DNA from: Candidatus Edwardsbacteria bacterium
Lineage (GTDB): Bacteria; Edwardsbacteria; AC1; EtOH8
Assembly: GCA_020053305.1 (NCBI GenBank)
Contig: JAGVNJ010000050.1
Location: 368-64,367, forward strand
Length of the DNA stretch: 64,000 bases
Direction: 5' to 3'
Part shown: positions 7,199 through 57,530 of the stretch, one piece after another
Layout: every line of letters starts with the position of its first letter
Numbering within the stretch: the stretch's first letter is position 1
The notes under the pieces: generated by a model
What the model saw: the letters and a program-made list of their open reading frames with translations, nothing else
Databases searched by the model: none
What the model was told of the DNA's origin: nothing
Translations under genes and position numbers: made by a program

Positions 7199-7221
7199 AC
7201 CAAACAGCGAAGAATATTATA

Positions 7222-8601: not shown

Positions 8602-8646
8602 TACATGCATTACGCCAAAATATAGTAGCAGAATAAAGCTTATAGA

Positions 8647-10909: not shown

Positions 10910-10922
10910 AATACAGCCACCT

Positions 10923-38451: not shown

Positions 38452-41400
38452 ATGCTCCATAGAAAATCCAAAATATATTCGTTGTCTTTGGCTCTGATCC
38501 TGACGGCGTCGGCGCTGGACATCGCCGGGAAGGCCCGGGCCCAGGAATTCGGACCATTGGAGGATATCACGGCGGATTACAATGCCGAGAGCTTCCGGAA
38601 AAACGTCAGGACCGCCAGCTACAGCATAGACCACCGGCTGGGGCTGATGATAGAGCAGGAGCTGGTTTCCCAGCTGAGCTTTGGGGTCAGGTATTACAGC
38701 CTGCCCGCCTTTTTGGAAAAACTGCGAATCGAGGGTACGGACAGCGCCTGGGCGAGGAACAATCATGCCTTCTTGTCAAAGCCGCCTCAGGAGAGGACCG
38801 GGGAGGGGCTGATCCCCGACATCCAGATACCCATCCCGGGGCTGGGCAGGGCCTTCGGCTCCGGGGCCCAGATAAAGGTCAGCGGCAACCAGAAGATAAC
38901 CGCCGGATACGACCGGACCACCTACAACCAGATCGGCCGGGACCTGGACGCCAATGCCACAACCGATGACGACCGGATAAACATCAAGCAGGCGCAACGA
39001 GTGAATCTGGAGGGGGTGATCGGCGACCGGGTGCATGTGCTGATAGATTACGACAGCGAGGCCGATCCTGACAAACGTAGCAAGGTCCGCCTGCGATATG
39101 AAGGCCAGGAGGACGAGATCCTGCAGAGCCTGGAGGCTGGGGACACCGAATTTTCCCTAAGCGGCTCCTCTCTGGTGGGCGGGCTGACCACGGTCCACAA
39201 GGGCCTGTTCGGGCTTAAGGGGGTGGCCCGGCTGGGGGGCTTCGAGCTGACGGCCATCGCCAGCAAGGACGAGGGCCAGAGCCAGACCAGCTCGTTCGAC
39301 GGCTCGAATGTAACCTCCTCCGTCACCCACCTGGACAATGAATTCATGCAGTATACGGTATACGAGATCATCCCCGGCGGGCTATTGGGCGATACCATCG
39401 AGGCCATAAAGGTCTATATCAAGAATGATCATGTCACCCCCAATGCCGCCGCCCATTACCTGAAGGACCGGAGCTGGCGGGATTTCAGGGGAATTCCCCG
39501 GGATACGATTTACGGCCCGGTTAGAATGGATGTCAAGACCGAGATCACCGATTTCATCCTGGACGATGCCGTAACCGGCCGGATAATTCTGGCCGCCGGC
39601 ATCTACGATCAATCGGTGCTGGGGGTGGCCTATAAGACCAAAAAAGGCGGCTATTATCCCAGCAAATATAATTTCGACAACTCGGATACCCTGATGCTGG
39701 TGAAGCCGGCCAACTGCCAGCCCGCCGATACCATAAACGGCTATTGCTGGAATTATGAAAAAAGAAATTATTATTCCTTGAACGGCCGGGGCATTGATTT
39801 CTCCACCCTGACCATAAAGCTGCAATACCGCAAAGAGAATGAATGGGTGGATAATGATTCGGCCAGCCAGAAGACCTTCCTGGAACTGCTGGGCCTGGAG
39901 AATGCCGGGGCCCTGTATGATAATTATATCAACCAGGAGGAGGGCTATTATTTCTTCCCCCAGGCTCAGCCGTTCCTGTCCCCGGCTCTGCCTGACAGCT
40001 GTCCTGACATCTACCGGGTGAAGAATCTGACCAATTATTCCGCCAAATACCGCTTTATCATCACCTACAAATCCACCGTGGCGATGTATCCCCTGAACGC
40101 CCCGGGGCGCCTGCTGGAGGGCACGGTCAGCGTCACCCTGGACGGATCACCGGTCTCGTCCGGCGAATATACGGTGGATTACGAGATGGGGACGGTCACC
40201 TTCAACGACCGGATCAAAAACATACTGCAGAGCAATGCCGCCCTTAAGATAGATTATCAATACCTGCCAGCGTTCGCTTTGGGGTCCAAGACCCTGGCCG
40301 GCCTGAGGGGCATCTATAAATTCGGGGAGAGCGGCCAGCTGGGCGGCACCTGGCTGTACCGCAGCGAGCAGACCCCGGACGAAAAGCCCCGGCTGGGCGA
40401 GGAACCCCGCCGGATAATCGTGGCCGGGCTGGACGGGAGCTACCAGGCCGCCCCCGATTTTCTCACCAGCTGGACCAATGCCCTGCCGCTGGTGGAGACC
40501 GAGGCCCCGTCCAACTTCAAGCTGACCGGCGAGGTGGCCGGAAATTTCCCCAACCCCAATACCAAGGGCCAGGTGTACATAGACGATATGGACGGCAGCA
40601 AGGTGTCCGACGAGTTCAACCTGAGCCGCTCGGCCTGGGTGCGCTCCAGCGTCCCTCCGGGCAAGACCGATACCCTGCTGGCCAAAACATTTTATTGGTA
40701 CAACCCCACCACCCAGGTCACCATGAAAGAGATCAATCCCGCCATCACCGATGAGACCCAGAAGAACGAAACCATCAGAACATTATTTTTTAAGTATGAA
40801 TCCGGACATCAGGACTCCTTGAACTCCTGGGCCGGGGTCACCCAGCTGATAAGCAAGACCGGGCTTGATTTAAGCCAGAGCAAACTGCTTAACCTCTGGA
40901 TAAGGGGCACTAAAGGGATCGTCCACATAGATATCGGGCGGAATATTGACGAGGATCAGGTATGGTGGACCAAGAAGGGTCTGCACCCGCAAAATAAAAA
41001 AGTGGACTGCGAGCCCTTGAACCTCAACCGGGAGCCGGTCTATACCGATAACACCGACATCGGCCTGGACCGGGTAAGGGGGAATGACAGCACTTATTCA
41101 TCCGCGTCAAGCGAAGACGGGACCGACGATTATGTTGTTGACGTAAATAAACCCGACTACAGTAAAATAAACGGAACCGAGCGCAACGGCTATTACGACA
41201 CCGAGGACCTTAAGATGAACGGCCTGGATTCGATGGATGTGCCCCAGCTGGGCAATAATTATTACACCTTCCGTTTCGATCTCTCCCAAAGCCCGGCCAA
41301 TCAATACGGCTGGCGCCAGCTGTCGGCTTTGCTGGATACCGCCCAGCCGGTGGGGCCCCAGCTGGGCTGGAGCTCCATTCAGTATGCCCGGATCTGGGTG

Positions 41401-44091
41401 GACAGCTGTCCGGTCAACAGCACCGCTTTTGAGATTGCCATGATAGAGGTCAGCGGCAACCGCTGGCAGGAGGAGGGGGTGTTTTCCAACGACACCCTCG
41501 ATGCCGCCGATCCCTCCGAAAAGTTCACCATAGAGGTGAAAAACAACCGGGATAATTCCGATTATACCCTGCCCCCCAATACCGAACAGAAGGACGATCA
41601 GGGAAGGGTGGAGTTCGAGCAGAGCCTGGTTTTCAATATCGACAGCCTGCGCTCCGGGCATTACGTCAAAGCCGGAAAGATACTGCGGGGCAGGGAGAAT
41701 AATTATACCGGGTACGAAACACTGAAGATCTGGGCCCACAGCAACGACAGCACCAATGTCAAGAAATCATTCGCCCTGCGGCTGATCGGCAACGATCCCA
41801 ACAGCTACTACCAGTACAAACAAGCCCTGTATTCCGGCTGGCAGGAGATGACCATGGATATACTTAAGTTCAGCGACCTGAAAAAACTGCCCTTTCCCTC
41901 CGACACCACCGACAAGATCAGAGCCAGCGGCAACTACTCCCTGAAGGGGAATCCCAGCCTGAAGGAGCTTAACGGAATCGCTTTGTGCGTTTTCAACGAC
42001 GACACCGGCCGGATATTCAGCGACGAGGTCTGGTTCGACGAACTGCGGCTGGACGATGTCCGCCGGGACCGGGGCACCGCCATCGCCTCCAGCGCCTCGA
42101 TTAACTTTGCCGATCTGCTATCGCTCAATGCTTCATACAATAAGATCGGAAGCCACTGGTACGGGATCAATACCGACGGCACCGGCTCCGGGGTCAAGAG
42201 TATTAGCTATAACTTCAGCGGCAGTTTCAACGCCCACAAACTTTACCTGGAACGGCTGGGTTTAACCCTTCCCATCGGCTTCCGATACGGCGAATCACAA
42301 CAGTTCAGCGAATACGGGGCCGACGATATCAGGCTTACCGAGGAGGAGAGCCGGGCCCAGATGGCCCTCTCCCAGAATGCCGGGTTTGACGTCTCCTTCT
42401 CCAAGAGTATGACCCAATGGTGGCTGACCAACCTTACCATAGACCGAATATCCCCCCGGTTCACCTGGAGCCGCAGCGTCACCGACAGCCGGACGACGGC
42501 TGACAGCAGCACCAGAACCGATCTGAGTTTGGGTTACGGCTGGAGCGCCGGAGGAAAAAGATCCTTCAAGACCTGGCCGGGATTGCAATTTTATTATCTG
42601 CCCAGTTCCTTCGGCCTGGGCTGGTCCCGCCAGCAGGAAAAAAGATGGTATTGGGACAAGCTCACCGGGGTGGAGAACAACAACGGCAGCAGGGATACCC
42701 GAAGCGGCCAGGGACAGCTCTCATGGCAGCTGATGAACTCCCTGAGTTACTCCTTCAACACTGCCAGAAATCTGAAGGACCGGTTCTTCCAGGGAGACTG
42801 GGCCAGAAGGTTCGACCTGGGGTCCGAGACCTCCCGTTCCCAGAGGGTGAACTACAGCACCACCCTTGACTGGCTGAAGGTCATCAAGCCCAGCCTGGCG
42901 TTCTCCACCCAGTACAGCGAGGGCCACAGCCTGGCCGCCAAGCCCAGCATCGTGGACACCTTCCACCTGCTGAATGTCAGCAATTCCAACAGCCTGTCCC
43001 TGAACAGCAGCCTGGCTGTGGGCAAATGGCTGGCCAAAGTAACCGGCTTGCGCAACAAGGCCAAGGACGATTCGTCCGAGGTGGGAACCCCCCGCTGGCT
43101 GGTGACAAAGCTTGACTACCTGTTCAACAAGCTGGGTGGGGTGCAGGCTTCTTACAGCCGCGATAACTCCAGCCAGGCCTCGAACCTGCTGATGAGGCGC
43201 CCCGATATGTTGTATCAGTTCGGCCTGAAGCAGCAGGCCACGGATATCCCCCGGTATTTCCAGGCCAGCCCCGACCGCAATACCATCCGCAATTCATATT
43301 CCCTGGGCACCAGCCTGGAGTTGATGAGGCTGTCGCTGAACCTTTCCTTCCGCCGCAGCGACGACACCACCATCGTGGGCGAGGCCCGGAACTCCAGCCG
43401 CAGCGTCACCTGGCCGGAGCTGAGGGCCACCCTGGCCGGCCTGGAGAGATGGGGCCTGTGGAAAAAGTCCCTGACCAGCGCCAGCCTGACCTCCTCCTAC
43501 AGCCGGACCATCGACAAGACCTGGGAGAACCAGAAGGCGCTGGTCAGGATCGCCACCAAGAATAATTTCACCCCGATACTTTCGATGTCCGGACGATGGA
43601 AGAAAAACATCAGCACCAGCCTGAATTTCGATTACAGCAGCCAGAAGAGCGACGATGTTATCGGTCAGGGGCGTGACACCTACAACCAGAACTTTAAAAC
43701 CAGCAGCTCCGTTTCCTATTCCTTCAGCGCCCCCAAGGGATTCAAGCTCAATCTGTGGAAGCTGGGCAAAAAGCGGATAAAATTCAACAGCGAGCTCAGC
43801 TTGACCTCACTGTTCAGCTATTCCATCATCGGCGCCAGGAATGCCATTCCGGAGGGGGAGGTTGCCGCCATGTGGGAGCTGGTCACCGAGACCGATTATG
43901 AAAAGATAACCGATCTGGGCTATACTTCGCTGGTCCACGAATTTGCCATGTCGCCCAGCGCAAAATACAATTTCACCCGGAGCATCACCGGGTCGGCCTC
44001 GGTTGACTACAGCTTCACCCACGACAAGATTGCCAAGAGCAACAACCGCAACCGAACGGCCTTCAACGCCTCGGTGGAGATCAAGTTTTAA
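38452..44091 (+). CDS. Giant (1,879 aa) secreted outer-membrane beta-barrel-like protein; SprA-like candidate
   Basis: Cleavable signal peptide (LALILTASALDIAGKARAQE). C-terminal residue Phe preceded by an alternating hydrophobic beta-strand (ASVEIKF). The C-terminal about 900 aa are rich in S/T/N/Y/W/G/R with alternating hydrophobicity. No internal repeats. Confidence 0.55.
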   Translation: MLHRKSKIYSLSLALILTASALDIAGKARAQEFGPLEDITADYNAESFRKNVRTASYSIDHRLGLMIEQELVSQLSFGVRYYSLPAFLEKLRIEGTDSAWARNNHAFLSKPPQERTGEGLIPDIQIPIPGLGRAFGSGAQIKVSGNQKITAGYDRTTYNQIGRDLDANATTDDDRINIKQAQRVNLEGVIGDRVHVLIDYDSEADPDKRSKVRLRYEGQEDEILQSLEAGDTEFSLSGSSLVGGLTTVHKGLFGLKGVARLGGFELTAIASKDEGQSQTSSFDGSNVTSSVTHLDNEFMQYTVYEIIPGGLLGDTIEAIKVYIKNDHVTPNAAAHYLKDRSWRDFRGIPRDTIYGPVRMDVKTEITDFILDDAVTGRIILAAGIYDQSVLGVAYKTKKGGYYPSKYNFDNSDTLMLVKPANCQPADTINGYCWNYEKRNYYSLNGRGIDFSTLTIKLQYRKENEWVDNDSASQKTFLELLGLENAGALYDNYINQEEGYYFFPQAQPFLSPALPDSCPDIYRVKNLTNYSAKYRFIITYKSTVAMYPLNAPGRLLEGTVSVTLDGSPVSSGEYTVDYEMGTVTFNDRIKNILQSNAALKIDYQYLPAFALGSKTLAGLRGIYKFGESGQLGGTWLYRSEQTPDEKPRLGEEPRRIIVAGLDGSYQAAPDFLTSWTNALPLVETEAPSNFKLTGEVAGNFPNPNTKGQVYIDDMDGSKVSDEFNLSRSAWVRSSVPPGKTDTLLAKTFYWYNPTTQVTMKEINPAITDETQKNETIRTLFFKYESGHQDSLNSWAGVTQLISKTGLDLSQSKLLNLWIRGTKGIVHIDIGRNIDEDQVWWTKKGLHPQNKKVDCEPLNLNREPVYTDNTDIGLDRVRGNDSTYSSASSEDGTDDYVVDVNKPDYSKINGTERNGYYDTEDLKMNGLDSMDVPQLGNNYYTFRFDLSQSPANQYGWRQLSALLDTAQPVGPQLGWSSIQYARIWVDSCPVNSTAFEIAMIEVSGNRWQEEGVFSNDTLDAADPSEKFTIEVKNNRDNSDYTLPPNTEQKDDQGRVEFEQSLVFNIDSLRSGHYVKAGKILRGRENNYTGYETLKIWAHSNDSTNVKKSFALRLIGNDPNSYYQYKQALYSGWQEMTMDILKFSDLKKLPFPSDTTDKIRASGNYSLKGNPSLKELNGIALCVFNDDTGRIFSDEVWFDELRLDDVRRDRGTAIASSASINFADLLSLNASYNKIGSHWYGINTDGTGSGVKSISYNFSGSFNAHKLYLERLGLTLPIGFRYGESQQFSEYGADDIRLTEEESRAQMALSQNAGFDVSFSKSMTQWWLTNLTIDRISPRFTWSRSVTDSRTTADSSTRTDLSLGYGWSAGGKRSFKTWPGLQFYYLPSSFGLGWSRQQEKRWYWDKLTGVENNNGSRDTRSGQGQLSWQLMNSLSYSFNTARNLKDRFFQGDWARRFDLGSETSRSQRVNYSTTLDWLKVIKPSLAFSTQYSEGHSLAAKPSIVDTFHLLNVSNSNSLSLNSSLAVGKWLAKVTGLRNKAKDDSSEVGTPRWLVTKLDYLFNKLGGVQASYSRDNSSQASNLLMRRPDMLYQFGLKQQATDIPRYFQASPDRNTIRNSYSLGTSLELMRLSLNLSFRRSDDTTIVGEARNSSRSVTWPELRATLAGLERWGLWKKSLTSASLTSSYSRTIDKTWENQKALVRIATKNNFTPILSMSGRWKKNISTSLNFDYSSQKSDDVIGQGRDTYNQNFKTSSSVSYSFSAPKGFKLNLWKLGKKRIKFNSELSLTSLFSYSIIGARNAIPEGEVAAMWELVTETDYEKITDLGYTSLVHEFAMSPSAKYNFTRSITGSASVDYSFTHDKIAKSNNRNRTAFNASVEIKF

Positions 44092-44099
44092 CGCTTGAA

Positions 44100-44534
44100 T
44101 TGGCGGGAGAGATGTTTGGGTTGACCCCGGACGAAAAAAAAGTCATAATATTTTTTATTGCGGCCCTGGCGCTGGGCAATGCCGTACTGCTCTACAAGAA
44201 AATGCATCCGGACTCTGCCCCGGAGCTTAAATACGGCGGGCCGGAATTGCCCCGGGCCATCGAGCAGCCGGGGTCATTTCCGGCCGGCCCGGAAGCTGCG
44301 GCAAAAAATCAATGGCCGGTCAAAAAGCTCCCGGCCGGAAAGATAGACCTCAATCGGGCCGGCCCCCGGGACCTGCAGAGGCTGCCGGCCATCGGCCCGG
44401 CCATGGCCAAAAAAATAATTGATTTCAGGAAGGAATCAGGCGATTTCAAAAAAGTCGAGGACCTGATGAAGGTCAAGGGCATCGGCCATAAAAAATTCAA
44501 CCGGCTCCGGGAGCATGTCTTTGTAGACCATTAA
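44100..44534 (+). CDS. comEA: ComEA-like helix-hairpin-helix DNA-binding protein (competence DNA receptor)
   Basis: N-terminal TM (VIIFFIAALALGNAVLLY), Pro-rich linker and a C-terminal tandem HhH (IDLNRAGPRDLQRLPAIGPAMAKKIIDFRKESGDFKKVEDLMKVKGIGHKKF). Start is TTG at 44100 or ATG at 44112. Confidence 0.8.
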   Translation: MAGEMFGLTPDEKKVIIFFIAALALGNAVLLYKKMHPDSAPELKYGGPELPRAIEQPGSFPAGPEAAAKNQWPVKKLPAGKIDLNRAGPRDLQRLPAIGPAMAKKIIDFRKESGDFKKVEDLMKVKGIGHKKFNRLREHVFVDH

Positions 44535-44561: not shown

Positions 44562-44591
44562 TTGACATTTGCAACTTGCATATGCTATAGT
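44562..44591 (+). promoter_or_regulatory. Sigma-70-like promoter (TTGACA-N18-TATAGT) upstream of pilB1
   Basis: Exact -35 hexamer and near-consensus -10. GAGGGA ribosome-binding site before the ATG at 44614. Confidence 0.55.
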
Positions 44592-44613
44592 ATTTCAAAT
44601 TGAGGGAGACGCT

Positions 44614-46308
44614 ATGGGTTTGAAATTAGGCGATATGTTGGTGCAGTCCGGGCTGATAACCAAAGATCAGCTGGACAAGGCCCTGGCCGAGCAGAAAAGC
44701 TCCGGCGCCAAGCTGGGCTCCAGCATTATAAAGCTGGGATTTATGACCGAGGACGCCATCACCCAATTCCTGGGCAAGCAGCTCAACCTTCCCACGGTGA
44801 ATCTTTCCACCGCCGAACTGGATCCCCAGGTTTTAAAACTTATTCCCCCCGAGATAGCCCAGAAATTTCAGGTGATGCCGATCAAAAAAACCGGACGGAT
44901 CCTGTTTCTGGCCATGTCCAACGCCGCCGATGTGTTCATCATGGAGCAAATCTCTTTTCTCACCGGGATGGAGGTCAAGCCGGTGGTATGCGCCGAGACA
45001 TCGCTGGAGAAGGCTTTGGACAAATATTACGGCAGCACCACCCGGGCCGCGGCCCTGAAATCGGTGGAGCAGGAGATCGCCGCCGAGGACATGGAGCTGG
45101 TGGACAAGGATATTGAGGAGGTGGCCAGCCAGGCCGATATCGAATCCACCCCGGTGGTGAAATTAGTAAACAGCATAGTCATCGACGCCATCAAGCGCGG
45201 GGCCTCGGACATCCATATAGAGCCCTACGAAAAAATCCTCCGGGTGCGCTACCGGATAGACGGGGTGCTGCAGGAGACCATGTCGCCTCCCCGCCGGATC
45301 GCGGCGGCCCTGGCCTCGCGCATCAAGGTGCTTTCCAAATTGAACCTCACCGAACGGCGCCTGCCTCAGGACGGAAGGTTCTCCATCAAACTTATCGACC
45401 GGACGGTGGACCTGCGGGTGTCCACCATGCCCATCAAATACGGCGAGAAGATCGTCATCCGGGTGCTGGAGCAGACCAGCCTGGGCGGCGACCTGACCCA
45501 GCTGGGCATCGAGGGCAAGGCCCTGGATGATTTCCTGAAGGCCCTGGCCCGGCCCACCGGCATGATACTGGTCACCGGGCCCACCGGCTCGGGAAAGACC
45601 CGCACCCTTTATTCCGGCATCTCCCGCCTGAACAAGCCCGGGGTCAACATCGTCACCGCCGAGGATCCGGTGGAATACGACATCGTGGGGATCAACCAGG
45701 TCAACGTCCGCCCGGAGATCGGCTATACCTTTGCCAAGGCCCTCAAGGCCTTTTTGCGGCAGGATCCCAACATCGTGCTGGTGGGGGAGATTCGGGACCG
45801 GGAGACCGGCGAGATCGCCATGACCGCGGCCATGACCGGCCACCTGGTGCTGTCCACCCTGCACACCAATGACGCCCCCAGCTCGCTGAACCGGCTGCTG
45901 GATATGGAGATCCCGCCCTTCCTGATAGCCGCCACGGTGAACCTGATCGAAGCCCAGCGCTTAGTCCGGCGCATTTGTTCAAAGTGCAAGGAGCCGGAAA
46001 AAATATCGTCCGAGGAGATGATCAAGATGGGGGTGGATCCAGCCAGTTTCCAAGGGGTGGAGTTTTTCAAGGGCAAGGGATGCCTGGAGTGCAACAATAC
46101 CGGGTACAAGGGCCGGGTGGGCGTGTTTGAGATACTGCCGGTGAGTCCGGAGATAAGAAAACTGATAGTAACCCGGGCCTCCACCGATGAGATCCGGGAG
46201 ATGGCGGTCAAACTGGGGATGAAGACCCTGCGGGAGGATGCCCTGGATAAGGTCAGAAAAGGCATCACCACCATGGAGGCGGCCATCGTGGAGACGGCCT
46301 CGGATTGA
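44614..46308 (+). CDS. pilB: Type IV pilus/T2SS extension ATPase, PilB/GspE family, paralog 1 (N-terminal MshEN-type domain)
   Basis: N-terminal tandem motif KLGDMLVQSGLITKDQLDKALAEQ...KLGSSIIKLGFMTEDAITQFLGKQ. Walker A GPTGSGKTRT. Asp box AEDPVEY. Walker B VLVGEIRD. His box GHLVLSTLHTN. CxxC...CxxC zinc motif. Confidence 0.85.
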   Translation: MGLKLGDMLVQSGLITKDQLDKALAEQKSSGAKLGSSIIKLGFMTEDAITQFLGKQLNLPTVNLSTAELDPQVLKLIPPEIAQKFQVMPIKKTGRILFLAMSNAADVFIMEQISFLTGMEVKPVVCAETSLEKALDKYYGSTTRAAALKSVEQEIAAEDMELVDKDIEEVASQADIESTPVVKLVNSIVIDAIKRGASDIHIEPYEKILRVRYRIDGVLQETMSPPRRIAAALASRIKVLSKLNLTERRLPQDGRFSIKLIDRTVDLRVSTMPIKYGEKIVIRVLEQTSLGGDLTQLGIEGKALDDFLKALARPTGMILVTGPTGSGKTRTLYSGISRLNKPGVNIVTAEDPVEYDIVGINQVNVRPEIGYTFAKALKAFLRQDPNIVLVGEIRDRETGEIAMTAAMTGHLVLSTLHTNDAPSSLNRLLDMEIPPFLIAATVNLIEAQRLVRRICSKCKEPEKISSEEMIKMGVDPASFQGVEFFKGKGCLECNNTGYKGRVGVFEILPVSPEIRKLIVTRASTDEIREMAVKLGMKTLREDALDKVRKGITTMEAAIVETASD

Positions 46309-46343
46309 TAATCACCACATCAAAACTTTAAATAAGACATGAC

Positions 46344-48071
46344 ATGGCTTTAAAAGTCGGCGATATGCTGCTCAAGGCCGGGATGATCAGTCCGGAGCAG
46401 TTGGAACAGGCCCTCAAGGAGCAGCAGAGTTCGGGCCAGAGGCTGGGCTCCCTGCTGGTCAAGATGGGCTTTGTCACCGAGGACGAGGTGGTGGCCTTTC
46501 TCAGCAAGCAGTTCAACGTCCCCTCGGTCAACCTGAACGATTACAAGATCGACGAGCCCATCCTCAAACTGATACCGGCCCATATAGCCCAGAAGTACGG
46601 GCTGATCCCCCTGTCACGCCTGGGCCGGAGCGTGACCGTGGCCATGGTCAACCCCAACGATGTGCTGGCCATGGAGGACATAAAATTCTCCACCGGATTT
46701 GAGGTTCGCCCGGTGATAGCCTCCGAGGCCGCCATCTGGTCGGCCATCGACAAGCAATACGGGTCGGCCGGGATGCTGGAGGATGTGATGAAGGCCATGG
46801 ACCAGGCCGAGGGTGACGTCGAGGCCGGGGACCTGGAGATCCTGGAGGAGCAGCAGGAGGAAGGCGGAGATTCCGCCTCGGAGATGGCCGCGGCCATCGA
46901 GAGCAGCCCGGCGGCCAAATTGGTCAACGGCCTGATCGCCGAGGCGGTCAAGCGCAATGCCACCGACATCCACATCGAGCCCTATGAGAAGGAGATCCGG
47001 GTCCGGATGTCGGTCTACGGCGTGCTGCACGAAGTGATGTCGCCGCCCCTGCGGATGAAGAGCTCCATCGCGGCCCGGATAAAGATCATCGCCAAATTAA
47101 AGATCGAGGAAAAACGCTTTCCCCAGGACGGCCGCCTGCGGATGAACATCCAGGGCAAGCCCATAGACATCCGGGTGTCCATCATCCCCACCGCCTTCGG
47201 GGAGAAGGTGGCCCTGCGCATCCTGGACCGCAGCGCAGTGTCATTCGACCTGCCCACTCTGGGGTTTGAGCCTGAGCCGCTGAAGCACCTGTTGAAGGCG
47301 GTTCAGACGCCCTTCGGAATAGTGCTGGTCACCGGGCCCACCGGCTCCGGCAAGACCACCACCATGTACGCCTGCCTGGAGTCCATCAACCATCCGGACA
47401 CCAATATCATGACCGCCGAGGAGCCGGTGGAGTACAGCCTGATGGGAGTCAATCAGGTGGCGGTGCGCGAGGAAGGCGGCACCACTTTCGGCGCCGCCCT
47501 CAAGGCCTTTTTGCGGCAGGATCCCAACATCATCATGGTGGGAGAGATCCGCGACCGGCAGACCGCCGAGATCGCCATCCGGTCCTCGCTCACCGGCCAT
47601 CTGGTGCTGTCCACCGTCCATACCAACAGCGCCTCGCTGACCATCACCCGGCTGGTGGACATGGGGGTGGAGCCCTTCATGATCGCTTCCTCGTTGCTGC
47701 TGGTGGAGTCCCAGAGGCTGGTCCGCAAGATATGCTCCTACTGCAAGGAGCAGTACAGGCCGGAGGAAAAAATGCTGCGCGAATTCCTGGGGGGCCGGGC
47801 CGACATCACCGGCTTTACCGCCTTCCGGGGCAAGGGCTGCTCGGAATGCCGCAACACCGGATACAAGGGCCGGATCGGCCTGGCCGAGGTGCTGCCCGTC
47901 AGCCCGGGCATCCGGGACCTGATATTGGAGCGAGCCCCCACCTTCAAGATAGAGGCCAAGGCCGTGGAGGAAGGGATGGCCACCCTGCGGATGGACGGGA
48001 TCCACAAGGCCCGCAGCGGGGTGACCACCATCGAAGAGGTCATCAAGGAGACCGTGGCCGCCGCCGACTAA
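46344..48071 (+). CDS. PilB/GspE-family extension ATPase, paralog 2
   Basis: Same domain order and the same Asp/Walker B/His boxes. Walker A GPTGSGKTTT. Acidic linker EGDVEAGDLEILEEQQEEGGDS between the N-domain and the ATPase. Confidence 0.85.
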   Translation: MALKVGDMLLKAGMISPEQLEQALKEQQSSGQRLGSLLVKMGFVTEDEVVAFLSKQFNVPSVNLNDYKIDEPILKLIPAHIAQKYGLIPLSRLGRSVTVAMVNPNDVLAMEDIKFSTGFEVRPVIASEAAIWSAIDKQYGSAGMLEDVMKAMDQAEGDVEAGDLEILEEQQEEGGDSASEMAAAIESSPAAKLVNGLIAEAVKRNATDIHIEPYEKEIRVRMSVYGVLHEVMSPPLRMKSSIAARIKIIAKLKIEEKRFPQDGRLRMNIQGKPIDIRVSIIPTAFGEKVALRILDRSAVSFDLPTLGFEPEPLKHLLKAVQTPFGIVLVTGPTGSGKTTTMYACLESINHPDTNIMTAEEPVEYSLMGVNQVAVREEGGTTFGAALKAFLRQDPNIIMVGEIRDRQTAEIAIRSSLTGHLVLSTVHTNSASLTITRLVDMGVEPFMIASSLLLVESQRLVRKICSYCKEQYRPEEKMLREFLGGRADITGFTAFRGKGCSECRNTGYKGRIGLAEVLPVSPGIRDLILERAPTFKIEAKAVEEGMATLRMDGIHKARSGVTTIEEVIKETVAAAD

Positions 48072-48298
48072 ATATAATACTCGCCTTGGCAATAAACCAA
48101 AGACGAGCAAATCCTAAATCCGAAATCCCAAACAAATGTTAATGACCAAAGCCGTATAATATGGGCATTTTCGGATTTCTGGAATTTTAAAACTTGAGAT
48201 TTGTTTGGTATTTCGGTATTCGAATTTCGGATTTGCCAAAGTGGCAAATACACTCATGAAGAAGGCTCGTTTAAAAATTTAATTAAGCCATAAAACTT

Positions 48299-50065
48299 AT
48301 GCCGCAAAATATTGCCGACATGCTTTTGAAGATGGGACTCCTGACCAAGTCCCAGTACGATCAGGCCTCTCTGGAGCAGAAGAGCAGCAACGAGCCGCTG
48401 GCCGCCACCTTGGTCCGGATGGGGATGGTCACCGAGAACGTGGCCATGCAGTTCATGTCCCGGCAGTTCAATGTCCCGGCCATGGACCTGAGCAACTTCC
48501 AGGTGGAGCCGGCGGTGATAAAGCTGATCCGGCCGGACATCGCCAACAAATTCATGGTGATCCCGTTAAAGCGCCTGGGCCGGGCCCTGACCCTGGCCAT
48601 GATCGATCCCTCGGATTTCTTCGCCCTGGAGGATATCAAATTTCTCACCGGCCTGGACGTCAAGCCGGTGGTGGCCGGCTATTCGGCCGTCAAGAAACTG
48701 CTGGAGCAGCACTATCCGCTGGGCAAGGATGTTCAGGTGATCGCCTCCGGCGGCCAGCTGAGCCAGCTTAAGGACGAGGCCATCGAGAGCCTGCCCGATG
48801 ATGACTCGGCCCTGGAGGGGCTGGGGGGCGACATCGAGATGGAGATGGTGGACGATGTCGAGGAGGACATGGACCTGGCCGACGCCCAGCAGGCCGGCTC
48901 CTCCACCCCGGTGGTCAAAATGGTCAACTACATCATGACCGAGGCGGTGCGCCGCGGAGCCTCGGACATCCATGTGGAGCCCTATGAGAAGATCTTCCGG
49001 ATCCGATTGAGGCAGGACGGCGTGCTGCAGACCCTGATGGAGCCGCCCATGCGGATGAAGGCCCCGCTGGTCTCCCGCATAAAGATCATGTCCAAACTGG
49101 ACGTCACCGAGCGCCGCAAGCCGCAGGACGGCCGGATCGCCATCAAGGTGCTCAACAAGAAGATCGACCTCCGGGTGTCCACCCTGCCGGTGCTGTTCGG
49201 GGAGAAGGTGGTGATGCGTATTTTGGACGCCGGGTCGCTGACCCTGGATCTGGCCAATTTCGGCTTCACCGAACTGGCCCTGAAGAATTTCATGAAGGCC
49301 ATCCACGCCCCCTACGGCATAGTCCTGATCACCGGCCCCACCGGGTCGGGAAAGACCACCACCCTGTATTCCGCCCTCTCCCAGCTGAACACGCCGGACC
49401 GGCATATCCTGACCGTGGAGGATCCCATCGAATACAATCTGAAGGGGGTCAACCAGGTCCAGGCCGAGTTGGGGATAGGTTTCACCTTTGACGTGGCCCT
49501 CAGGGCCATGCTGCGGCAGGCTCCCAACATCATCATGCTGGGCGAGATCCGGGACGGCCCCACCGCCGCCATCGCGGTCAAGGCCGCCCTGACCGGGCAT
49601 CTGGTGTTGTCCACCCTGCATACCAACGACGCTCCGTCGTCGGTCAGCCGTCTGATCGACATGGGGATCGAGCCGTTCCTGGTGGCCTCCTCGACCGTGC
49701 TGATCCAGGCCCAGCGCCTGGTCCGCCGGATATGCAAGGCCTGCAAGGAGCCGTTCCATGTCAATCCCCAGTCCCTGATCGACATGGGCTTCAAAGCCGA
49801 GGAGGTGGCCGGGGTCACCTATTACAAGGGCAAGGGCTGCCCCATCTGCAGCAATACCGGATACAAGGGCCGGGTGGGTCTCTACGAGGTGATGCCCATC
49901 ACTCCCGAGATCCGGGACCTGATACTGAACCGGGAGGCGGTGACCTCCATCAGGGCCAAGGCGGTGGAACAGGGGATGCTGACCCTGCGGATGGACGCCT
50001 GGGGCAAGGTCAAGCAGGGCATGACCACGGTGGAGGAGATGTTCCGCGAAACCGCCGAGGGATAG
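48299..50065 (+). CDS. PilB/GspE-family extension ATPase, paralog 3
   Basis: Same architecture. Walker A GPTGSGKTTT. Acidic linker DDDSALEGLGGDIEMEMVDDVEEDMD. Tetracysteine motif CKACKEP...CPICSNTG. Confidence 0.85.
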   Translation: MPQNIADMLLKMGLLTKSQYDQASLEQKSSNEPLAATLVRMGMVTENVAMQFMSRQFNVPAMDLSNFQVEPAVIKLIRPDIANKFMVIPLKRLGRALTLAMIDPSDFFALEDIKFLTGLDVKPVVAGYSAVKKLLEQHYPLGKDVQVIASGGQLSQLKDEAIESLPDDDSALEGLGGDIEMEMVDDVEEDMDLADAQQAGSSTPVVKMVNYIMTEAVRRGASDIHVEPYEKIFRIRLRQDGVLQTLMEPPMRMKAPLVSRIKIMSKLDVTERRKPQDGRIAIKVLNKKIDLRVSTLPVLFGEKVVMRILDAGSLTLDLANFGFTELALKNFMKAIHAPYGIVLITGPTGSGKTTTLYSALSQLNTPDRHILTVEDPIEYNLKGVNQVQAELGIGFTFDVALRAMLRQAPNIIMLGEIRDGPTAAIAVKAALTGHLVLSTLHTNDAPSSVSRLIDMGIEPFLVASSTVLIQAQRLVRRICKACKEPFHVNPQSLIDMGFKAEEVAGVTYYKGKGCPICSNTGYKGRVGLYEVMPITPEIRDLILNREAVTSIRAKAVEQGMLTLRMDAWGKVKQGMTTVEEMFRETAEG

Positions 50066-51236: not shown

Positions 51237-51534
51237 TAATATTGGGAACTTTGCACACAGATGAACACAGATTAGTACAGATTTTCTCGGATTTAATTTT
51301 ATGATTTTGGGTTAACAAGTAACGTCCGTGCAAATCCGGTCCAATCAGTGAAATCCGTGTGCCATAAGCCCCCCGTCCGATTCCCGATCTCAATTCCACT
51401 CAGGGCAGGCTTATCGTCTTCCCCGCCACCGTCCGCCTCCGGCGGAGCGGTGATTGAATTCCAATGACTACAATTAATCGCTCGGATTAATAATTCCTTA
51501 GAAAAGAATAAATATTTTACAAGGAGCAATAAAG

Positions 51535-52766: not shown

Positions 52767-54941
52767 ATGAGATCAACTTTCCTGAAGGATAACCCGGTGA
52801 TGTTTTGGGGCCGGGTGGTAATCGTGGCATTGATGACGGGAAGCGCTGCGGTGTTAAAAACACTGGGGGCGCTTCCCCTGTCTTTTCCGGGCATCATCCT
52901 CCTGTCTATCATCTTCCTGCTGCTGACGGCCTTTGCTAAGTATCTTAATCATCGGCGGCCGGGCTGGCGGTGGGATTATGCCCAAATGGTGCTGGACATC
53001 GGCTGGATCGCCGCCTTCATCCATATGACCGGCGGGGCGGAGAACCCCTTTACCCTGCTGTTCTTCATAGCCATTATTGCCGCCGCCAATGTCCGCTTTG
53101 CTAAGGGAGCAATTTTCACCGCCACCTTATCCAGCCTGACCCTGGCCGCTTTGATATATTTGGATTACCGCAGTTTAAGGACCGGACTGTTGCTGGGCCG
53201 GGACCAGGATTTCGTGACTGCTTTCACTACCGAGTTTGTTTTCCGGGGATACCTCTATGCCATCTGCTTCTATCTGGTGGCGGCCTTCTCCGGCTACCTG
53301 GCCGAAAGGCTCAGGCTGAAGGGGAGGCAGCTGGAGGACACCGCCCGGGCCCTGGAGGAGTTCAAGCTGTCCACCGGCGATATCCTGGAGAAGATGGGCA
53401 GCGGCCTGCTGACCATCAATGAAAAAGGGCAGATCGTATACTGCAACCTTTCCGGCCTGCAGATACTGGGCCTGGAAAAAAGCGAGATCATCGGCCGCAA
53501 TGTCTCCCAGGTAGCCGTCGAGGGCCGGGAATCCCTGGGGAGCATTCTGGCCCCGGATAATGCCCCAAGGGAAGGCCGCTCCCAGCGGATGGAGATAAAA
53601 ATATCGCGGGGCCGGGAGGAGGGCATTCCGGTGGGGGTCAGCACCACCTCGGTCTATGGCAGCCAGGGGAAACTGGAGGGCATCATCGCCATCTTCCAGG
53701 ACCTGAGCGCGGTCAAAACGCTGGAGAACCGGATGATCGAGATGGAACAGCTGGAGACCTCCAAGGAGCTGACCAAATCCCTGCTGAAGCTTCTGCATCC
53801 CTACCTTTCCGAGATAAATGCCACCATCTCCGAACTGATGAGGGAGAATGAGGTGGACCCGGTCATCATCGCCAAGATCTCCCGGGTTAAGGAGAAGACC
53901 GAGTATATCCGCAAGACCATCGATGACTTTGCCAGGTTCGCCCATATCGAAATCCCGGGAGCCGATATGGTCCAGCAGGCCGGCCGGGAATATGACAGCC
54001 GGATAATTGGCCGGTCGCCGAATTTCGTCGAGATCATGAACATGGTCCAGCAGGTGGCCCCCACCGACAGCACGGTGCTGGTCTGCGGGGAGTCCGGCAC
54101 CGGCAAGGAACTGCTGGCCCGGGAGCTGCACCGCCTGAGCGGTCGGGGCAAAGGACCATTCGTCAGCATCAACTGCGCCGCCCTGCCCGAGACCCTGCTG
54201 GAATCGGAGCTGTTCGGCCATGTCAAGGGATCGTTCACCGGGGCGATGCGCGACAAGGACGGCCTGTTCCGGGTGGCCTCCGGCGGCACCTTTTTCTTAG
54301 ACGAGGTGTCCGAGACCTCTCCGGCCATTCAGGTTAAGCTGCTGCGGGTGCTGCAGGAACGGGAGATCGTGCCGGTGGGAGGCACCCGTCCCATCAAGGT
54401 GGATGTCAGGGTGATCTCGGCCACCAACAGCGATCTGGCAAAGGCGGTGGAGATGAATAAATTCAGGATGGATCTGTTCTACCGCCTTAACGTCATCCAG
54501 ATCACCATCCCTCCGCTGAGGGACCGCAAAGACGACGTGCTGCTGCTGGCCGATGAGATCATCGCCAATTATTGCCGGAAGCAGAATCTCCCGGTTAAGC
54601 TGATGTCTTCCGGGGCCAGGGATTTTTTGATGCAATACAATTGGCCCGGCAACGTCAGGGAATTGGAGAATGTCTTGGAGCGGGCCATCATCCTGGAGAC
54701 CGGACCGGTGATAGAAAAAAACAGCCTGCCGGACGAGGTATTGAAGTTCGGGTCCGACATTAAAAAGGCGCCGTTACCGGAAACGGCCAACGGGGGGAAT
54801 TTAAAGGACAAGGAAAAGCAGACCATTCTTAAGGTATTGACCGAATGCCATAACAATAAGGCCTTGGCGGCCAAAAAGCTGGGTATTCACTACGCCACTT
54901 TGTACCGGAAATTGAAAAGCTATAATATTACGGATGAATAA
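52767..54941 (+). CDS. Membrane-anchored sigma-54-dependent transcriptional activator (polytopic TM sensor - PAS - AAA+ - Fis HTH; no receiver domain)
   Basis: Four to six N-terminal TM helices containing a PilS/AlgZ-like HMTGGAENPF segment. PAS-like region. Sigma-54 interaction domain (VLVCGESGTGKELLAREL, GSFTGA variant of GAFTGA, RVISATN). C-terminal HTH (ALAAKKLGIHYATLYRKL). Confidence 0.8.
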   Translation: MRSTFLKDNPVMFWGRVVIVALMTGSAAVLKTLGALPLSFPGIILLSIIFLLLTAFAKYLNHRRPGWRWDYAQMVLDIGWIAAFIHMTGGAENPFTLLFFIAIIAAANVRFAKGAIFTATLSSLTLAALIYLDYRSLRTGLLLGRDQDFVTAFTTEFVFRGYLYAICFYLVAAFSGYLAERLRLKGRQLEDTARALEEFKLSTGDILEKMGSGLLTINEKGQIVYCNLSGLQILGLEKSEIIGRNVSQVAVEGRESLGSILAPDNAPREGRSQRMEIKISRGREEGIPVGVSTTSVYGSQGKLEGIIAIFQDLSAVKTLENRMIEMEQLETSKELTKSLLKLLHPYLSEINATISELMRENEVDPVIIAKISRVKEKTEYIRKTIDDFARFAHIEIPGADMVQQAGREYDSRIIGRSPNFVEIMNMVQQVAPTDSTVLVCGESGTGKELLARELHRLSGRGKGPFVSINCAALPETLLESELFGHVKGSFTGAMRDKDGLFRVASGGTFFLDEVSETSPAIQVKLLRVLQEREIVPVGGTRPIKVDVRVISATNSDLAKAVEMNKFRMDLFYRLNVIQITIPPLRDRKDDVLLLADEIIANYCRKQNLPVKLMSSGARDFLMQYNWPGNVRELENVLERAIILETGPVIEKNSLPDEVLKFGSDIKKAPLPETANGGNLKDKEKQTILKVLTECHNNKALAAKKLGIHYATLYRKLKSYNITDE

Positions 54942-54959
54942 GAAACAGGGTAGTCGGTA

Positions 54960-55150
54960 TGGCAATAATAGTCATCCTGAGATTCTTCGGCTTGCCGGGC
55001 AGGATGCAGGACTCAGAATGACGAAATGGTTTGCTGTCACGTCATCCTGAAAGCGACAACAGTTTTCACAATGTCATTCCCTCGAAAGAGGGTATCTATG
55101 TTTTTGCTGGATTCCCGCCTATGCGGGAATGACACAGAATTGAAGGATCT
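54960..55150. repeat. Hairpin-rich intergenic repeat cluster (GTCATCCTGA x2; TGTCATTCCC...GGGAATGACA 10-bp inverted repeat)
   Basis: Direct and inverted copies of a GTCATYCC / GGAATGAC core. Small perfect hairpins (CCCTC-gaaa-GAGGG, TCCCGC-ctat-GCGGGA). Related copy at 60927-61035. Confidence 0.6.
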
Positions 55151-55201
55151 GCGCCTATAGGAGGTGTTCAGGAGGCTATCTTGGGCTATCCTCCTGACTT
55201 T

Positions 55202-55217
55202 AGGCACGATAATTGCT
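55202..55217 (+). promoter_or_regulatory. Sigma-54 (-24/-12) promoter upstream of the HAMP-pilin gene
   Basis: AGGCACGATAATTGCT matches TGGCACG-N4-TTGCW with correct GG/GC spacing. About 36 nt upstream of the ATG at 55253. Confidence 0.65.
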
Positions 55218-55252
55218 TATATTATCTGCATAACAGACATTAAGGAATTGAT

Positions 55253-56338
55253 ATGGCTCAAAATCGAAGACGAAAAATACTGGCCCACAAGGATATGCAG
55301 ATCAGGATCGTCATTCAGATCTTGGCAATGGTGGCCGGCGGAATGCTGCTGGTGGGCGGGGCGATATATCTGATCATCTGGCAGGGCATCACCAGCCCGG
55401 CCTTTGCTTCGGGTCAAACATCAATAATCAGCATCTTTGACCAGGTGCATAAATTGCTTTTTATAGTTATTCCGGTTCTTATCTTGATAATGGGCTGGAT
55501 CGCAATAATTATCTCACATCGTATAGCCGGACCTTTGGTAAACCTGAACAAGGGCATGAGAGACCTGGAGAGCGGCCAGTGGCCGGAGCGGCCCATGAAA
55601 TTCCGCAAAGGGGATGAGGGCCATCACCTGGCAGAGCAGTTCAACAGCATGGTGGAGAAAGTAAAATTGCAGATGGAACACGAAAGAAACAGGATGGACT
55701 CCATGCTGACTGAAGTGGAATCCGTTTCAGCCAAGTTAAAGCAGGAGAAAAAGACCGAACAGGAAATCATAAAGGAATTGGATTCATTGCAGGAAAAAAT
55801 CAAAAAATCCGCTCAGCAGGGCTTCACCCTGATAGAATTGATGATCGTGGTGGTGATAATAGGCATACTGGCCGCCATAGCCGTGCCCAATTACATGAGT
55901 ATGCGCAGCCGGGCTATGGAAGCCTCTACCAAATCAAATATGCATACTCTGCAATTAGTGATTGAAGATTTTGCGGTGAGGGTTGACGGCTTTTACCCCG
56001 ATAACTTGGATACAAAATTATCGGATATTAACGCATCATTATCTGCCGTTTCGATTGCCGAAGGCGTGCGTATCCCGCCATTCCCGGCCGCTGCCTTGAT
56101 ATGTCCGCACTTGGGTTATGTCAATCCGTTTAATCCTGCGGCCAACGCTTTGGACGATCTCCCGGGCGGCCCGCCAGCACCGGCGGCGGGCCCCAGCGGA
56201 GATGTTTTTTATACCAGTTATGATGTTGACGGCAACCTGAACGGAGGCACCAATCCAGCCGCTAGGGGGTATAGAATATGTGCATATGGTAAAACTGACC
56301 CCGTGATCCTGATTTTAACTGGAGGCACGGGAAATTAG
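55253..56338 (+). CDS. 2TM-HAMP-coiled-coil protein fused in-frame to a type IV prepilin (or two unresolved genes with the pilin starting at an internal TTG)
   Basis: Residues 1-90: two TM helices with a short loop. Residues 90-140: HAMP-like (HRIAGPLVNLNKGMRDLESGQW...DEGHHLAEQFNSMVEKV). Then about 50 aa of coiled coil. Then the canonical prepilin motif KKSAQQG|FTLIELMIVVVIIGILAAIAVPNY and a pilin globular domain paralogous to 56518..57018. No stop codon separates the two parts. Confidence 0.55.
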   Translation: MAQNRRRKILAHKDMQIRIVIQILAMVAGGMLLVGGAIYLIIWQGITSPAFASGQTSIISIFDQVHKLLFIVIPVLILIMGWIAIIISHRIAGPLVNLNKGMRDLESGQWPERPMKFRKGDEGHHLAEQFNSMVEKVKLQMEHERNRMDSMLTEVESVSAKLKQEKKTEQEIIKELDSLQEKIKKSAQQGFTLIELMIVVVIIGILAAIAVPNYMSMRSRAMEASTKSNMHTLQLVIEDFAVRVDGFYPDNLDTKLSDINASLSAVSIAEGVRIPPFPAAALICPHLGYVNPFNPAANALDDLPGGPPAPAAGPSGDVFYTSYDVDGNLNGGTNPAARGYRICAYGKTDPVILILTGGTGN

Positions 56339-56437
56339 TCGTCTATTGCAATAATATCGCATAATGCAAAGTAAATAAATTTGAACTATCATTGCGTAAC
56401 CGTTTATATACAATAAACTTGTCAACGCATTTATTTT

Positions 56438-56453
56438 TGGCATGATTTATGCT
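56438..56453 (+). promoter_or_regulatory. Sigma-54 (-24/-12) promoter upstream of pilA
   Basis: TGGCATGATTTATGCT fits TGGCAC-N5-TTGCW in spacing. About 65 nt upstream of the pilA ATG. Confidence 0.65.
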
Positions 56454-56517
56454 GCCATATTTAAGTCATAAGACTACAAAAAAAATCAATCCAACTAAAT
56501 TTTAAAAGGAGACCAAA

Positions 56518-57018
56518 ATGAACAACAAAGGCTTTACCCTGATCGAGTTGATGATCGTGGTGGTCATCATCGGTATCCTGGCGGCCATCGCCATTCCCAA
56601 CTTTATGTCCATGCAGGACCGGGCCAAGGAAGGTTCCGTCAAGGCTAATATGCATACCCTGCAGTTGGCGTCCGAGGATTTCTCTACCCAAGCTGATGGG
56701 ATTTATGCAGGAAACCTCGCTAGCACAATTGCTGATGCTAACGCCCTGTCTGCCAGCGTGTCTACTATTCCATTGTTATTGCCGGGCAATTTTAAGAACC
56801 CGTTTTTAGGTACAACGGGCGTAGGGGGTGGTTTGGCACTTAACGACGGCGGCGCGGAGCCGGCAGTATTTGCGGTTGCTGATAGAGGCATAGTATATTA
56901 TAACGGCTTGGATGTGGCTGGCGCATATGTTGGGGCAGTGGGTCCGGCAGTATCCTACGCAATCTATGGCGCAGGCAAAACTGACATTATTATCCTTAGG
57001 CTTACTTCGGGCCAGTAG
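56518..57018 (+). CDS. pilA: Type IV major pilin (PilA-like)
   Basis: MNNKG|FTLIELMIVVVIIGILAAIAIPNF prepilin leader and N-terminal helix. 166 aa. Confidence 0.85.
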   Translation: MNNKGFTLIELMIVVVIIGILAAIAIPNFMSMQDRAKEGSVKANMHTLQLASEDFSTQADGIYAGNLASTIADANALSASVSTIPLLLPGNFKNPFLGTTGVGGGLALNDGGAEPAVFAVADRGIVYYNGLDVAGAYVGAVGPAVSYAIYGAGKTDIIILRLTSGQ

Positions 57019-57035
57019 CGCTAATTGTTAAAAAA

Positions 57036-57067
57036 GGTAGGCTGTGCAATACGGCCTGCCTTTTTTT
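57036..57067 (+). terminator. Rho-independent terminator after pilA
   Basis: A-run, GGTAGGC-(11 nt loop)-GCCTGCC stem, then TTTTTTT. Confidence 0.7.
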
Positions 57068-57128: not shown

Positions 57129-57530
57129 ATGAATTGCCCCTACATAAGACATTTGAAAAAAAATGTAACAATAATTTTGCTGTTCCTCTTCTGCGGTTGT
57201 GCAAATACAGATAAGACCCCGGAGGCGGCGGTAAGATATTTCTGGGCGGCCATGGCCAAGGGCGACAAAGCGGAGGTGCTCAAAACCCAGATATATTATA
57301 AAACAGGCATGACCTCCGAATTCATAAATATCCCGGAAAACATCGAGTGGCTTTATTTAGACAGCATGACCACTGTTTACAAAAGCGATTCCCGGGCAGA
57401 TGTTTATTACCAGGTGGTATTCAGGAAGAATAACGGCACAAAAACTGTCCGTTATAAAACCGGGACCCTGGCCATTAAAAAGAACAATAATTGGATGATA
57501 GCAAGGGTGATAGGAGCTAAAAAAGAATGA
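57129..57530 (+). CDS. Small lipoprotein of unknown function
   Basis: Lipobox LFLFCGC after a positively charged N-terminus. ATGA overlap with the downstream ABC ATPase. Confidence 0.45.
   Translation: MNCPYIRHLKKNVTIILLFLFCGCANTDKTPEAAVRYFWAAMAKGDKAEVLKTQIYYKTGMTSEFINIPENIEWLYLDSMTTVYKSDSRADVYYQVVFRKNNGTKTVRYKTGTLAIKKNNNWMIARVIGAKKE

Follow-up and report, generated by a model that had tools for sequence, protein, structure and literature searches.

Predicted sigma-54 promoters of the two pilin genes

In a 64,000-nucleotide stretch of DNA from a Candidatus Edwardsbacteria bacterium (contig JAGVNJ010000050.1; henceforth the window), two genes with type IV pilin motifs lie downstream of a gene for a sigma-54 enhancer-binding protein (EBP), and each is preceded by a sequence resembling the -24/-12 promoters of sigma-54 (RpoN). 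Judging from the sequence and its conservation, we consider it likely that both genes are read from these sigma-54 promoters, P1 and P2, that P2 would be opened by the neighbouring EBP acting at an upstream palindrome, and that the repeats upstream of P1 are not enhancers. The pilus region comprises, in order, three PilB paralogs, PilT, PilC, the EBP, an open reading frame (ORF) of 361 codons and a gene for a 166-residue pilin, and the best protein matches bear Candidatus Edwardsbacteria names.

P1 (AGGCACGATAATTGCT, 55202-55217, plus strand) has GG at 55203-55204 and GC at 55215-55216, with a predicted transcription start at about 55228. P2 (T-TGGCATGATTTATGCT, 56437-56453, plus strand, the 16-mer occupying 56438-56453) has GG at 56439-56440 and GC at 56451-56452, with a start predicted at about 56464. 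A preliminary description of this DNA had ascribed -24/-12 geometry to both 16-mers, and the GG-N10-GC spacing was confirmed in each at these coordinates. Both sites are located in intergenic, non-coding DNA in the orientation of the downstream gene. The gap between 16-mer and start codon, previously put at 35-65 nt, measures 35 nt for P1 (ATG 55253) and 64 nt for P2 (ATG 56518). The same description placed both promoters immediately after the EBP gene, which holds for P1, 261 nt past the EBP stop codon, but not for P2.

P1 and P2 depart from the consensus TGGCACG-N4-TTGCW by one and two mismatches, respectively. Plain counts of this consensus in the window were uninformative, with eight matches against 9.2 expected when up to two mismatches were allowed (not above chance) and one match against 0.46 expected when at most one was allowed, and we therefore used matrix ranking and a comparison across loci instead. 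The matrix scan, which the preliminary description had proposed for the whole genome, was run on the window with an approximate sigma-54 weight matrix: P1 ranked first (score 15.8) and P2 second (15.0) among 127,970 positions on both strands. The next-ranked matches were rejected: one at 51525 on the minus strand (score 14.8) is kept in the related loci L006, L009 and L012 but merely represents the pilC start (ATGCCA) in reverse complement, and one at 54115 falls within the EBP coding sequence (ELLARELH).

The comparison set consisted of ten loci (L006-L015) carrying full-length orthologs of the 361-residue protein with 49-78% identity; a single-protein search of genome contigs with the EBP had returned only distant AAA+ or PAS matches (L001-L005), which were left out. 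The gene order pilC-EBP-pilins is retained in nine of the ten, the pilin pair of L010 being located elsewhere; among these nine, two have a glycosyltransferase gene inserted and L014 has its pilin genes swapped. With a matrix score of at least 11.5 as the threshold, a motif is located 30-37 nt before the start codon of the first gene in eight of the ten loci and 53-75 nt before that of the second gene in nine, the tenth, L013, having a weaker copy. For eight of ten loci with a motif within 100 nt, the binomial probability is about 4e-14 (background 1.3e-4 per position), a figure that treats related loci as independent. The first-gene motif of L006 is displaced 467 nt by an insertion, and a candidate second P1 closer to the gene in this locus was discarded, as only GG-N12-GC was found there.

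In alignments anchored on the motif, the only conserved columns were GGCA and TGC in a fixed 16-nt geometry. Across 11 loci, P2 has an invariant TTGGCA (11/11) and an almost invariant TGC (10/11), while the flanks could not be aligned. Moreover, L136, from an unrelated high-GC lineage, has a perfect TGGCACGCGCATTGCT 91 nt upstream of a similar pilin gene that follows an EBP. In that contig the gene caller had fused the EBP and the downstream pilin into a single 598-residue 'protein' (P0079, 3001-4797), and the perfect consensus (4247-4262) lies in the DNA between the two. On the basis of the top matrix ranks, the placement and orientation of both sites, the conservation of their position while the flanks diverge, and the neighbouring EBP gene, we accept P1 and P2 as sigma-54 promoters in uncultured Candidatus Edwardsbacteria, and we infer that they depend on sigma-54.

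Alternatively, the -24/-12 resemblance might be fortuitous or secondary, transcription starting instead from sigma-70-type promoters, or from sigma-A-type promoters of the FCB group, in A+T-rich DNA. Besides the lack of enrichment of the bare sigma-54 consensus in the window, such an origin is suggested by a sigma-70-like CTGACT-N18-TATATT that overlaps P1 and a TTGTCA-N16-CATGAT at P2, by A+T-rich -10-like hexamers that follow the -12 element in many loci, by a TTGACT-N18-TATAAT overlapping P2 in L014, and by an extended -10 element, TGATATAAT, in L010. Given the hexamers and the L014 sequence, dual promoters are possible. Still, we regard an origin of both transcripts from such promoters as improbable: the region has 5 sigma-70-like matches where chance predicts 4.6, these vary between loci in both hexamers and spacing, and the distance from TTGGCA to the A+T-rich hexamers is only 11-15 nt. 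Conservation is confined to exactly GGCA and TGC at the fixed 16-nt geometry, and an EBP, able to act only with sigma-54, is encoded alongside.

The fused EBP, a putative activator, and a palindrome upstream of P2

The EBP gene (52767-54941, plus strand) encodes a protein of 724 residues with a PilS-like domain of six transmembrane (TM) helices, a PAS domain, a linker collinear with PilS, an AAA+ domain and a Fis-type helix-turn-helix (HTH). The corresponding Pfam matches are 6TM_PilS (3e-10; 40.6 bits, cut-off 27), PAS_9 (3.6e-11; 43.7 bits), Sigma54_activat (5e-69) and HTH_8 (2.6e-11). Pfam revealed neither HisKA nor HATPase, even at E values up to 10 on the linker, nor a Response_reg match, and the AAA+ domain directly follows the PilS-like linker. 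The Walker A motif GESGTGKE and, at residue 488, GSFTGA, a variant of GAFTGA, are found in all ten orthologs, in which the HTH recognition region LGIHYATLYRKLK is invariant as well.

Residues 16-360 of the EBP align collinearly with one PilS kinase (29% identity over 346 residues) into an H-box, which is degenerate in the EBP, with Lys where PilS has the phospho-acceptor His. The idea of a vestigial HisKA in the linker was dropped, since it found no support from Pfam and only the collinear BLAST alignment reaches the H-box. When the first 410 residues were used as the query, the matches were EBPs fused in the same way, several bearing the name Candidatus Edwardsbacteria, followed by PilS kinases with 22-29% identity; in this single, word-limited search, every protein with the fusion of PilS to an EBP was labelled either Candidatus Edwardsbacteria or unclassified 'bacterium'. 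By its predicted domains, the EBP is the sensor half of PilS fused to a sigma-54 ATPase and HTH, an architecture free of a phosphorelay.

Upstream of P2, a candidate upstream activating sequence (56346-56369) is composed of a half-site TTGCAA, contained in the box TTGCAATAATA, and the palindrome TCGCATAATGCAA (56357-56369), centred at about -101 from the predicted P2 start. Nine of the ten relatives have an exact TTGCA-N3-TGCAA, and L013 has a copy with one mismatch. Each 9-kb locus contains the palindrome about once, always intergenic upstream of P2 and nowhere else at that stringency; a shuffled 64-kb window yields a mean of 0.035 exact matches. Its centre is located 95-147 bp upstream of the predicted P2 start, or 249 bp in L006, which has an insertion, and the spacer between palindrome and P2 is 61-84% A+T across loci. 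The stretch between the pilin genes (56339-56437) shows no significant RNA fold (z = 0.1). We also noticed, at 44569-44581 and thus at the start of the first PilB paralog gene, a sequence TTGCAACTTGCAT that differs from the palindrome by one mismatch.

Half-sites accompany the palindrome. A cluster of TGCAA/TTGCA half-sites directly follows the stop codon of the preceding gene in all 11 loci, 250 nt upstream of P2 hold 2-8 half-sites where the background is 0.35 (about 12-fold enriched), and the 7-mer TGCAATA is present upstream of P2 in 11/11 loci. For the same region, the window reads TTGCAATAATATCGCATAATGCAA and L006 reads TTGCAACAATATTGCATATTGCAA. The preliminary description had proposed a box TKGCAATAATA here, at 56346-56358. 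The box does begin at 56346, but ends at 56356, and it adjoins the conserved element as an additional half-site abutting the palindrome; the conserved unit, however, is TTGCA-N3-TGCAA together with extra TGCAA half-sites and not TKGCAATAATA. Only P2 has a conserved candidate palindrome for binding of an activator, and the EBP is the presumed reader: its binding is suggested by co-location and by the invariance of both the palindrome and the recognition region.

We propose that both genes are transcribed from -24/-12 promoters by sigma-54 (RpoN) holoenzyme. At P2, the closed complex formed by the holoenzyme would be opened by the neighbouring EBP, bound through its Fis-type HTH to the palindrome cluster at 56346-56369, centred about 100 bp upstream. 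The 75% A+T spacer between palindrome and P2 would favour looping, and ATP hydrolysis by the AAA+ domain, with its GSFTGA loop, would drive formation of the open complex. The resulting transcript would begin with about 54 nt of leader, including a strong Shine-Dalgarno sequence, and would end at an intrinsic terminator (57030-57066, plus strand), a stem between an A-run and a T-run (-24.6 kcal/mol, z = -4.4). P1 would be of the same type without an upstream site of its own, and its activator would probably be either the same EBP, acting from the palindrome 1.1 kb downstream, or a different one. There is no comparable terminator structure between the pilin genes, so P1 transcripts may continue into the second. 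By analogy with PilS, the EBP may respond to the pool of pilins in the membrane.

Several observations weigh against this proposal, in addition to the chance-level matches to the bare consensus and the -10-like hexamers mentioned above. The sigma-54 matrix is an approximation based on published sigma-54 compilations, and rpoN was not found among the genes of the 64-kb window, part of a contig of about 64.6 kb; the intact EBP is at most indirect evidence of rpoN. The P1 motif is missing in L014 and begins with A or G, not T, in most loci; upstream of P1 there is no conserved element, with 0-2 half-sites and no 6- or 7-mer shared across loci. The L013 copy of P2 is weaker, with GT in place of GC at -12, and the window copy of the palindrome, TCGCATAATGCAA, has one mismatch. 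Finally, the EBP is predicted to be membrane-anchored, yet it would have to reach the DNA and form an active ring.

Some of these points bear on the possibility that the promoters are of the sigma-54 type but that the adjacent EBP is not their activator, or that some other protein, for instance a repressor, a nucleoid protein or a different EBP, occupies the palindrome. P1 has no palindrome, the link between HTH and palindrome is one of co-location and shared invariance, and the pilin pair of L010 has its promoters and palindrome with no EBP gene alongside. Against this stand the adjacency of the EBP gene in nine of the ten loci, the position of the palindrome at a classical enhancer distance, and the fact that EBP genes commonly adjoin their targets (PMC2725144). 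We regard another activator or another occupant of the palindrome as unlikely, and retain activation of P2 by the neighbouring EBP as the preferred reading. The preliminary description had gone further in treating the pilins and the EBP as a self-contained regulon; this is plausible for the second promoter and at most possible for the first. In L010, both promoters and the palindrome persist although no EBP gene lies beside them.

Hairpin repeats between the EBP gene and P1

In the preliminary description, a TKGCAATAATA box shared by both promoters and a perfect 10-bp inverted repeat, TGTCATTCCC/GGGAATGACA, were candidate enhancers through which the EBP would act at both. Two copies of the box do exist in the window, against 0.12 expected, though this statistic is post hoc, the pattern having been derived from the same two copies. 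The inverted repeat is likewise real and perfect over 10 bp, and it holds TGTC motifs reminiscent of the GTCT elements near Pseudomonas PilR sites (PMC6058289).

The locus comparison tells against this role. The first box (TGGCAATAATA, 54960-54970, plus strand) is not a conserved element: the TTGCA core is missing from it, and L009 is the one relative with a counterpart, TGGCGATAATA. The intergenic region from the EBP to the first gene, in which the box lies, measures no more than 55-62 nt in L007, L010 and L015. A relaxed search for palindromes around P1, from -400 to +1100, found none.

The inverted repeat, for its part, extends to arms of 25 nt (55072-55096 and 55110-55134) and is contained in a head-to-head pair (55072-55134) of a dispersed hairpin repeat, TGTCATTCCCGC-N3-GGCGGGAATC, whose family consensus one 25-nt arm fits with two mismatches. 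Exact matches to the 22 specified bases of this family were found in at least 120 unrelated metagenome contigs, several of them as head-to-head pairs. Among the matches listed, the repeat-bearing contig stretches range from 29 to 67% GC with unrelated flanks, and of 18 strong sigma-54-like matches none is within 300 nt of a copy of the repeat. In L006, two copies of the TGTCATTCCCGC type flank about 190 bp between promoter and gene, a position unlike that in the window. We also searched for GGCRATAAT as a part of the dispersed repeat, and it was contained in none of 83 flanks (0/83).

Two further hairpin-forming repeats occupy the same intergenic stretch. A repeat GTCATCCTGAG...CTCAGAATGAC (54971-55023, plus strand) lies in a segment that folds as a hairpin and is followed by a third GTCATCCTGA copy at 55041-55050; all three window copies of GTCATYCTGA fall within this hairpin-repeat stretch (54971-55050). 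Directly upstream of P1 stands a short GC-rich hairpin, the inverted repeat TCAGGAGGCTA/TATCCTCCTGA (55168-55197, plus strand), and the wider stretch 55160-55201 folds at -17.2 kcal/mol (z = -2.6). As a whole, 54942-55200 folds into three hairpins (z = -3.0). Scans of the window with Rfam and for tRNAs gave no matches.

These sequence comparisons identify the repeats that separate the EBP gene from P1 as inserted hairpin units and not as enhancers. An enhancer function of the shared box and the inverted repeat at both promoters appears scarcely tenable, and the locus comparison has already largely refuted it. Downstream of the EBP gene, the intergenic DNA forms a hotspot of GC-rich hairpin repeats, of the GTCATCCTGAG, GTCATTGCGAGG and TGTCATTCCCGC types, and their content and position vary between relatives (window 54942-55200; L006 3600-3850; L009 3770-3900). 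The TGTCATTCCCGC family resembles REP/MITE-like repeats in being made of short GC-rich palindromic intergenic units present in many copies and as head-to-head pairs. It differs from them in spanning contigs of very different GC, and neither a transposase nor a target-site pattern was identified for it. Hairpin repeats of this kind beside promoters are easily mistaken for enhancers.

The pilin proteins, their surroundings and known systems

Both downstream proteins, called pilins in the preliminary description, carry a glycine followed by FTLIELMIVVVIIGILAAIA, as expected of a class III signal with Gly-1, Phe+1, Glu+5 and some 21 hydrophobic residues, and give N_methyl matches of 1.7e-9 and 6.7e-10. 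The first ORF, however, is not a simple pilin gene but a HAMP-pilin fusion. It encodes 361 residues (55253-56338, plus strand) arranged as two TM helices, HAMP, coiled coil and pilin, with the class III motif internal, from residue 190 (G190 followed by FTLIELM); the Pfam matches are HAMP at residues 87-137 and N_methyl at residues 186-210. Over its pilin part, the fusion shares 47% identity with the second pilin. The fused reading frame is kept in 14 orthologs, among which the coiled-coil linker varies by in-frame deletions. Prepilin leaders are 6-26 residues long (PMC4471445). In the fusion, 189 residues, comprising the two TM helices and HAMP, precede Gly-1, in place of a short hydrophilic leader. 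The predicted topology would put the cleavage site in the cytoplasm, so that processing of the fusion is possible.

The N-terminal 185 residues of the fusion have more than 2,000 homologs, of which the best-scoring are mostly stand-alone proteins of 140-210 residues; the four stand-alone homologs that were scanned all contain HAMP above the Pfam cut-off. One stand-alone homolog, in L137, is not within a pilus locus, and P0248 represents a second, different fusion of the HAMP module to a prepilin-like protein. An AlphaFold model of the HAMP-pilin (mean pLDDT 52) was too poor and was not used for a fold search. Literature searches returned nothing relevant on HAMP-prepilin fusions, Edwardsbacteria pili or membrane-anchored EBPs.

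The second gene (56518-57018, plus strand) encodes a type IV pilin of 166 residues with a Pfam N_methyl match and a five-residue leader, MNNKG, preceding FTLIELM. Its best NCBIfam match is the Myxococcus-type PilA, below cut-off, and it is probably the major pilin. A Shine-Dalgarno sequence, AAAGGAG, is located at 56505-56511. The 5' leaders of this gene (56454-56517 in the window) are CA-rich, of the AACCAAC type, in most loci and end in a strong Shine-Dalgarno sequence of the AAAGGAG type.

Control of pilin genes by sigma-54 and PilR-type activators is textbook knowledge in Proteobacteria. It has been described in Xanthomonas (PMC8657755) and Pseudomonas (PMC6058289), and in Geobacter sulfurreducens pilR is followed by a sigma-54-dependent pilA (PMC2725144). 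The window shares with the PilS-PilR/RpoN systems (P. aeruginosa pilA, Xanthomonas oryzae PilRX-RpoN2, Dichelobacter nodosus fimA) a -24/-12 pilin promoter, predicted in our case, an NtrC-family AAA+ activator with a Fis-type HTH encoded in the pilus cluster, and a sensor with the PilS-type six-helix membrane domain plus PAS. Unlike in those systems, the PilS sensor half and the PilR output half are here in one polypeptide, without HisKA/HATPase or receiver. The elements described for P. aeruginosa PilR are TGT-N11-AGA and GTCT (PMC6058289), whereas the element conserved across our loci is TTGCA-N3-TGCAA. G. sulfurreducens shows the same placement of the EBP gene immediately upstream of an RpoN-type pilin promoter (PMC2725144) and a similar order pilB-pilT-pilC-regulator-pilin; its PilR, however, is a response regulator with a kinase partner, and the window has two predicted sigma-54 promoters and two paralogous pilin modules, one of them fused to HAMP.

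Enhancers of the NtrC type are palindromic sites located about 100-150 bp upstream of glnAp2. They are matched here by a short TGCA-containing palindrome about 100-150 bp upstream of the start, with a presumed Fis-type HTH reader, and action at a distance of the kind known for NtrC could, by analogy, explain P1; sequence and spacing differ, and the EBP here is predicted to be membrane-anchored. In commensal Neisseria, transcription of pilE depends on RpoN, IHF and the activator Npa (PMC6528607). That system offers a parallel in the use of RpoN with an activator and of bent or A+T-rich DNA between activator site and promoter. It differs in that Npa looks like a two-component response regulator, and no IHF site was established in the window.

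The PilS of P. aeruginosa detects PilA inside the membrane (Kilmury and Burrows 2016, as cited in PMC6058289), and a comparable pilin-sensing input to the EBP of the window is only an analogy. Taken further, it would amount to pilin autoregulation free of a phosphorelay, in which the membrane EBP senses the pool of pilin helices and directly switches on the promoters, with the HAMP-pilin as first target and either cleaved or a signalling partner. We find this extension tempting but doubtful. Speculatively, prepilin peptidase would then separate a HAMP stub from the pilin, or else the HAMP-pilin would persist uncleaved as a pilin-mimicking signalling partner of the EBP. Both architectures, the fused EBP and the HAMP-pilin, are apparent from the predicted domains; their functional coupling is speculation.

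Other features surround the pilus genes. The three tandem paralogs of PilB-type extension ATPases (579, 575 and 588 residues; 44569-50065) stand before pilT and pilC. They are preceded at 38452-44534 by a gene for a 1879-residue protein with no Pfam match and an NCBIfam match to the type IX secretion system translocon SprA/Sov (8e-107), then a ComEA-like HHH_3 protein. Past the second pilin gene, a small lipoprotein-like ORF (57129-57530; 133 residues) has an LFCGC lipobox and no family match; an unannotated ORF occupies the same position by the pilin genes in L006, L008 and L014, and the L014 copy shares sequence with that of the window. Farther away, at 7000-12000, an island of low GC (28-32% against about 55% elsewhere) lies within a polysaccharide cluster (Wzy-like, flippase, GT2, GT4), which suggests a horizontally exchanged cassette.

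Sigma-54 pilin promoters are a well-known, ordinary kind of control, and their prediction in Candidatus Edwardsbacteria mainly widens its known range, while supplying a testable pair of promoter and enhancer for an uncultured phylum. What is unusual is the fused PilS-EBP, the new palindrome and the HAMP-pilin target. TTGCA-N3-TGCAA is a precise, conserved candidate site for an uncharacterised EBP. The first target places a HAMP module ahead of a pilin, outside the usual definition of a prepilin leader. In the EBP itself, the PilS-PilR pair appears collapsed into one membrane protein without phosphotransfer, which, if functional, must activate sigma-54 from the membrane.

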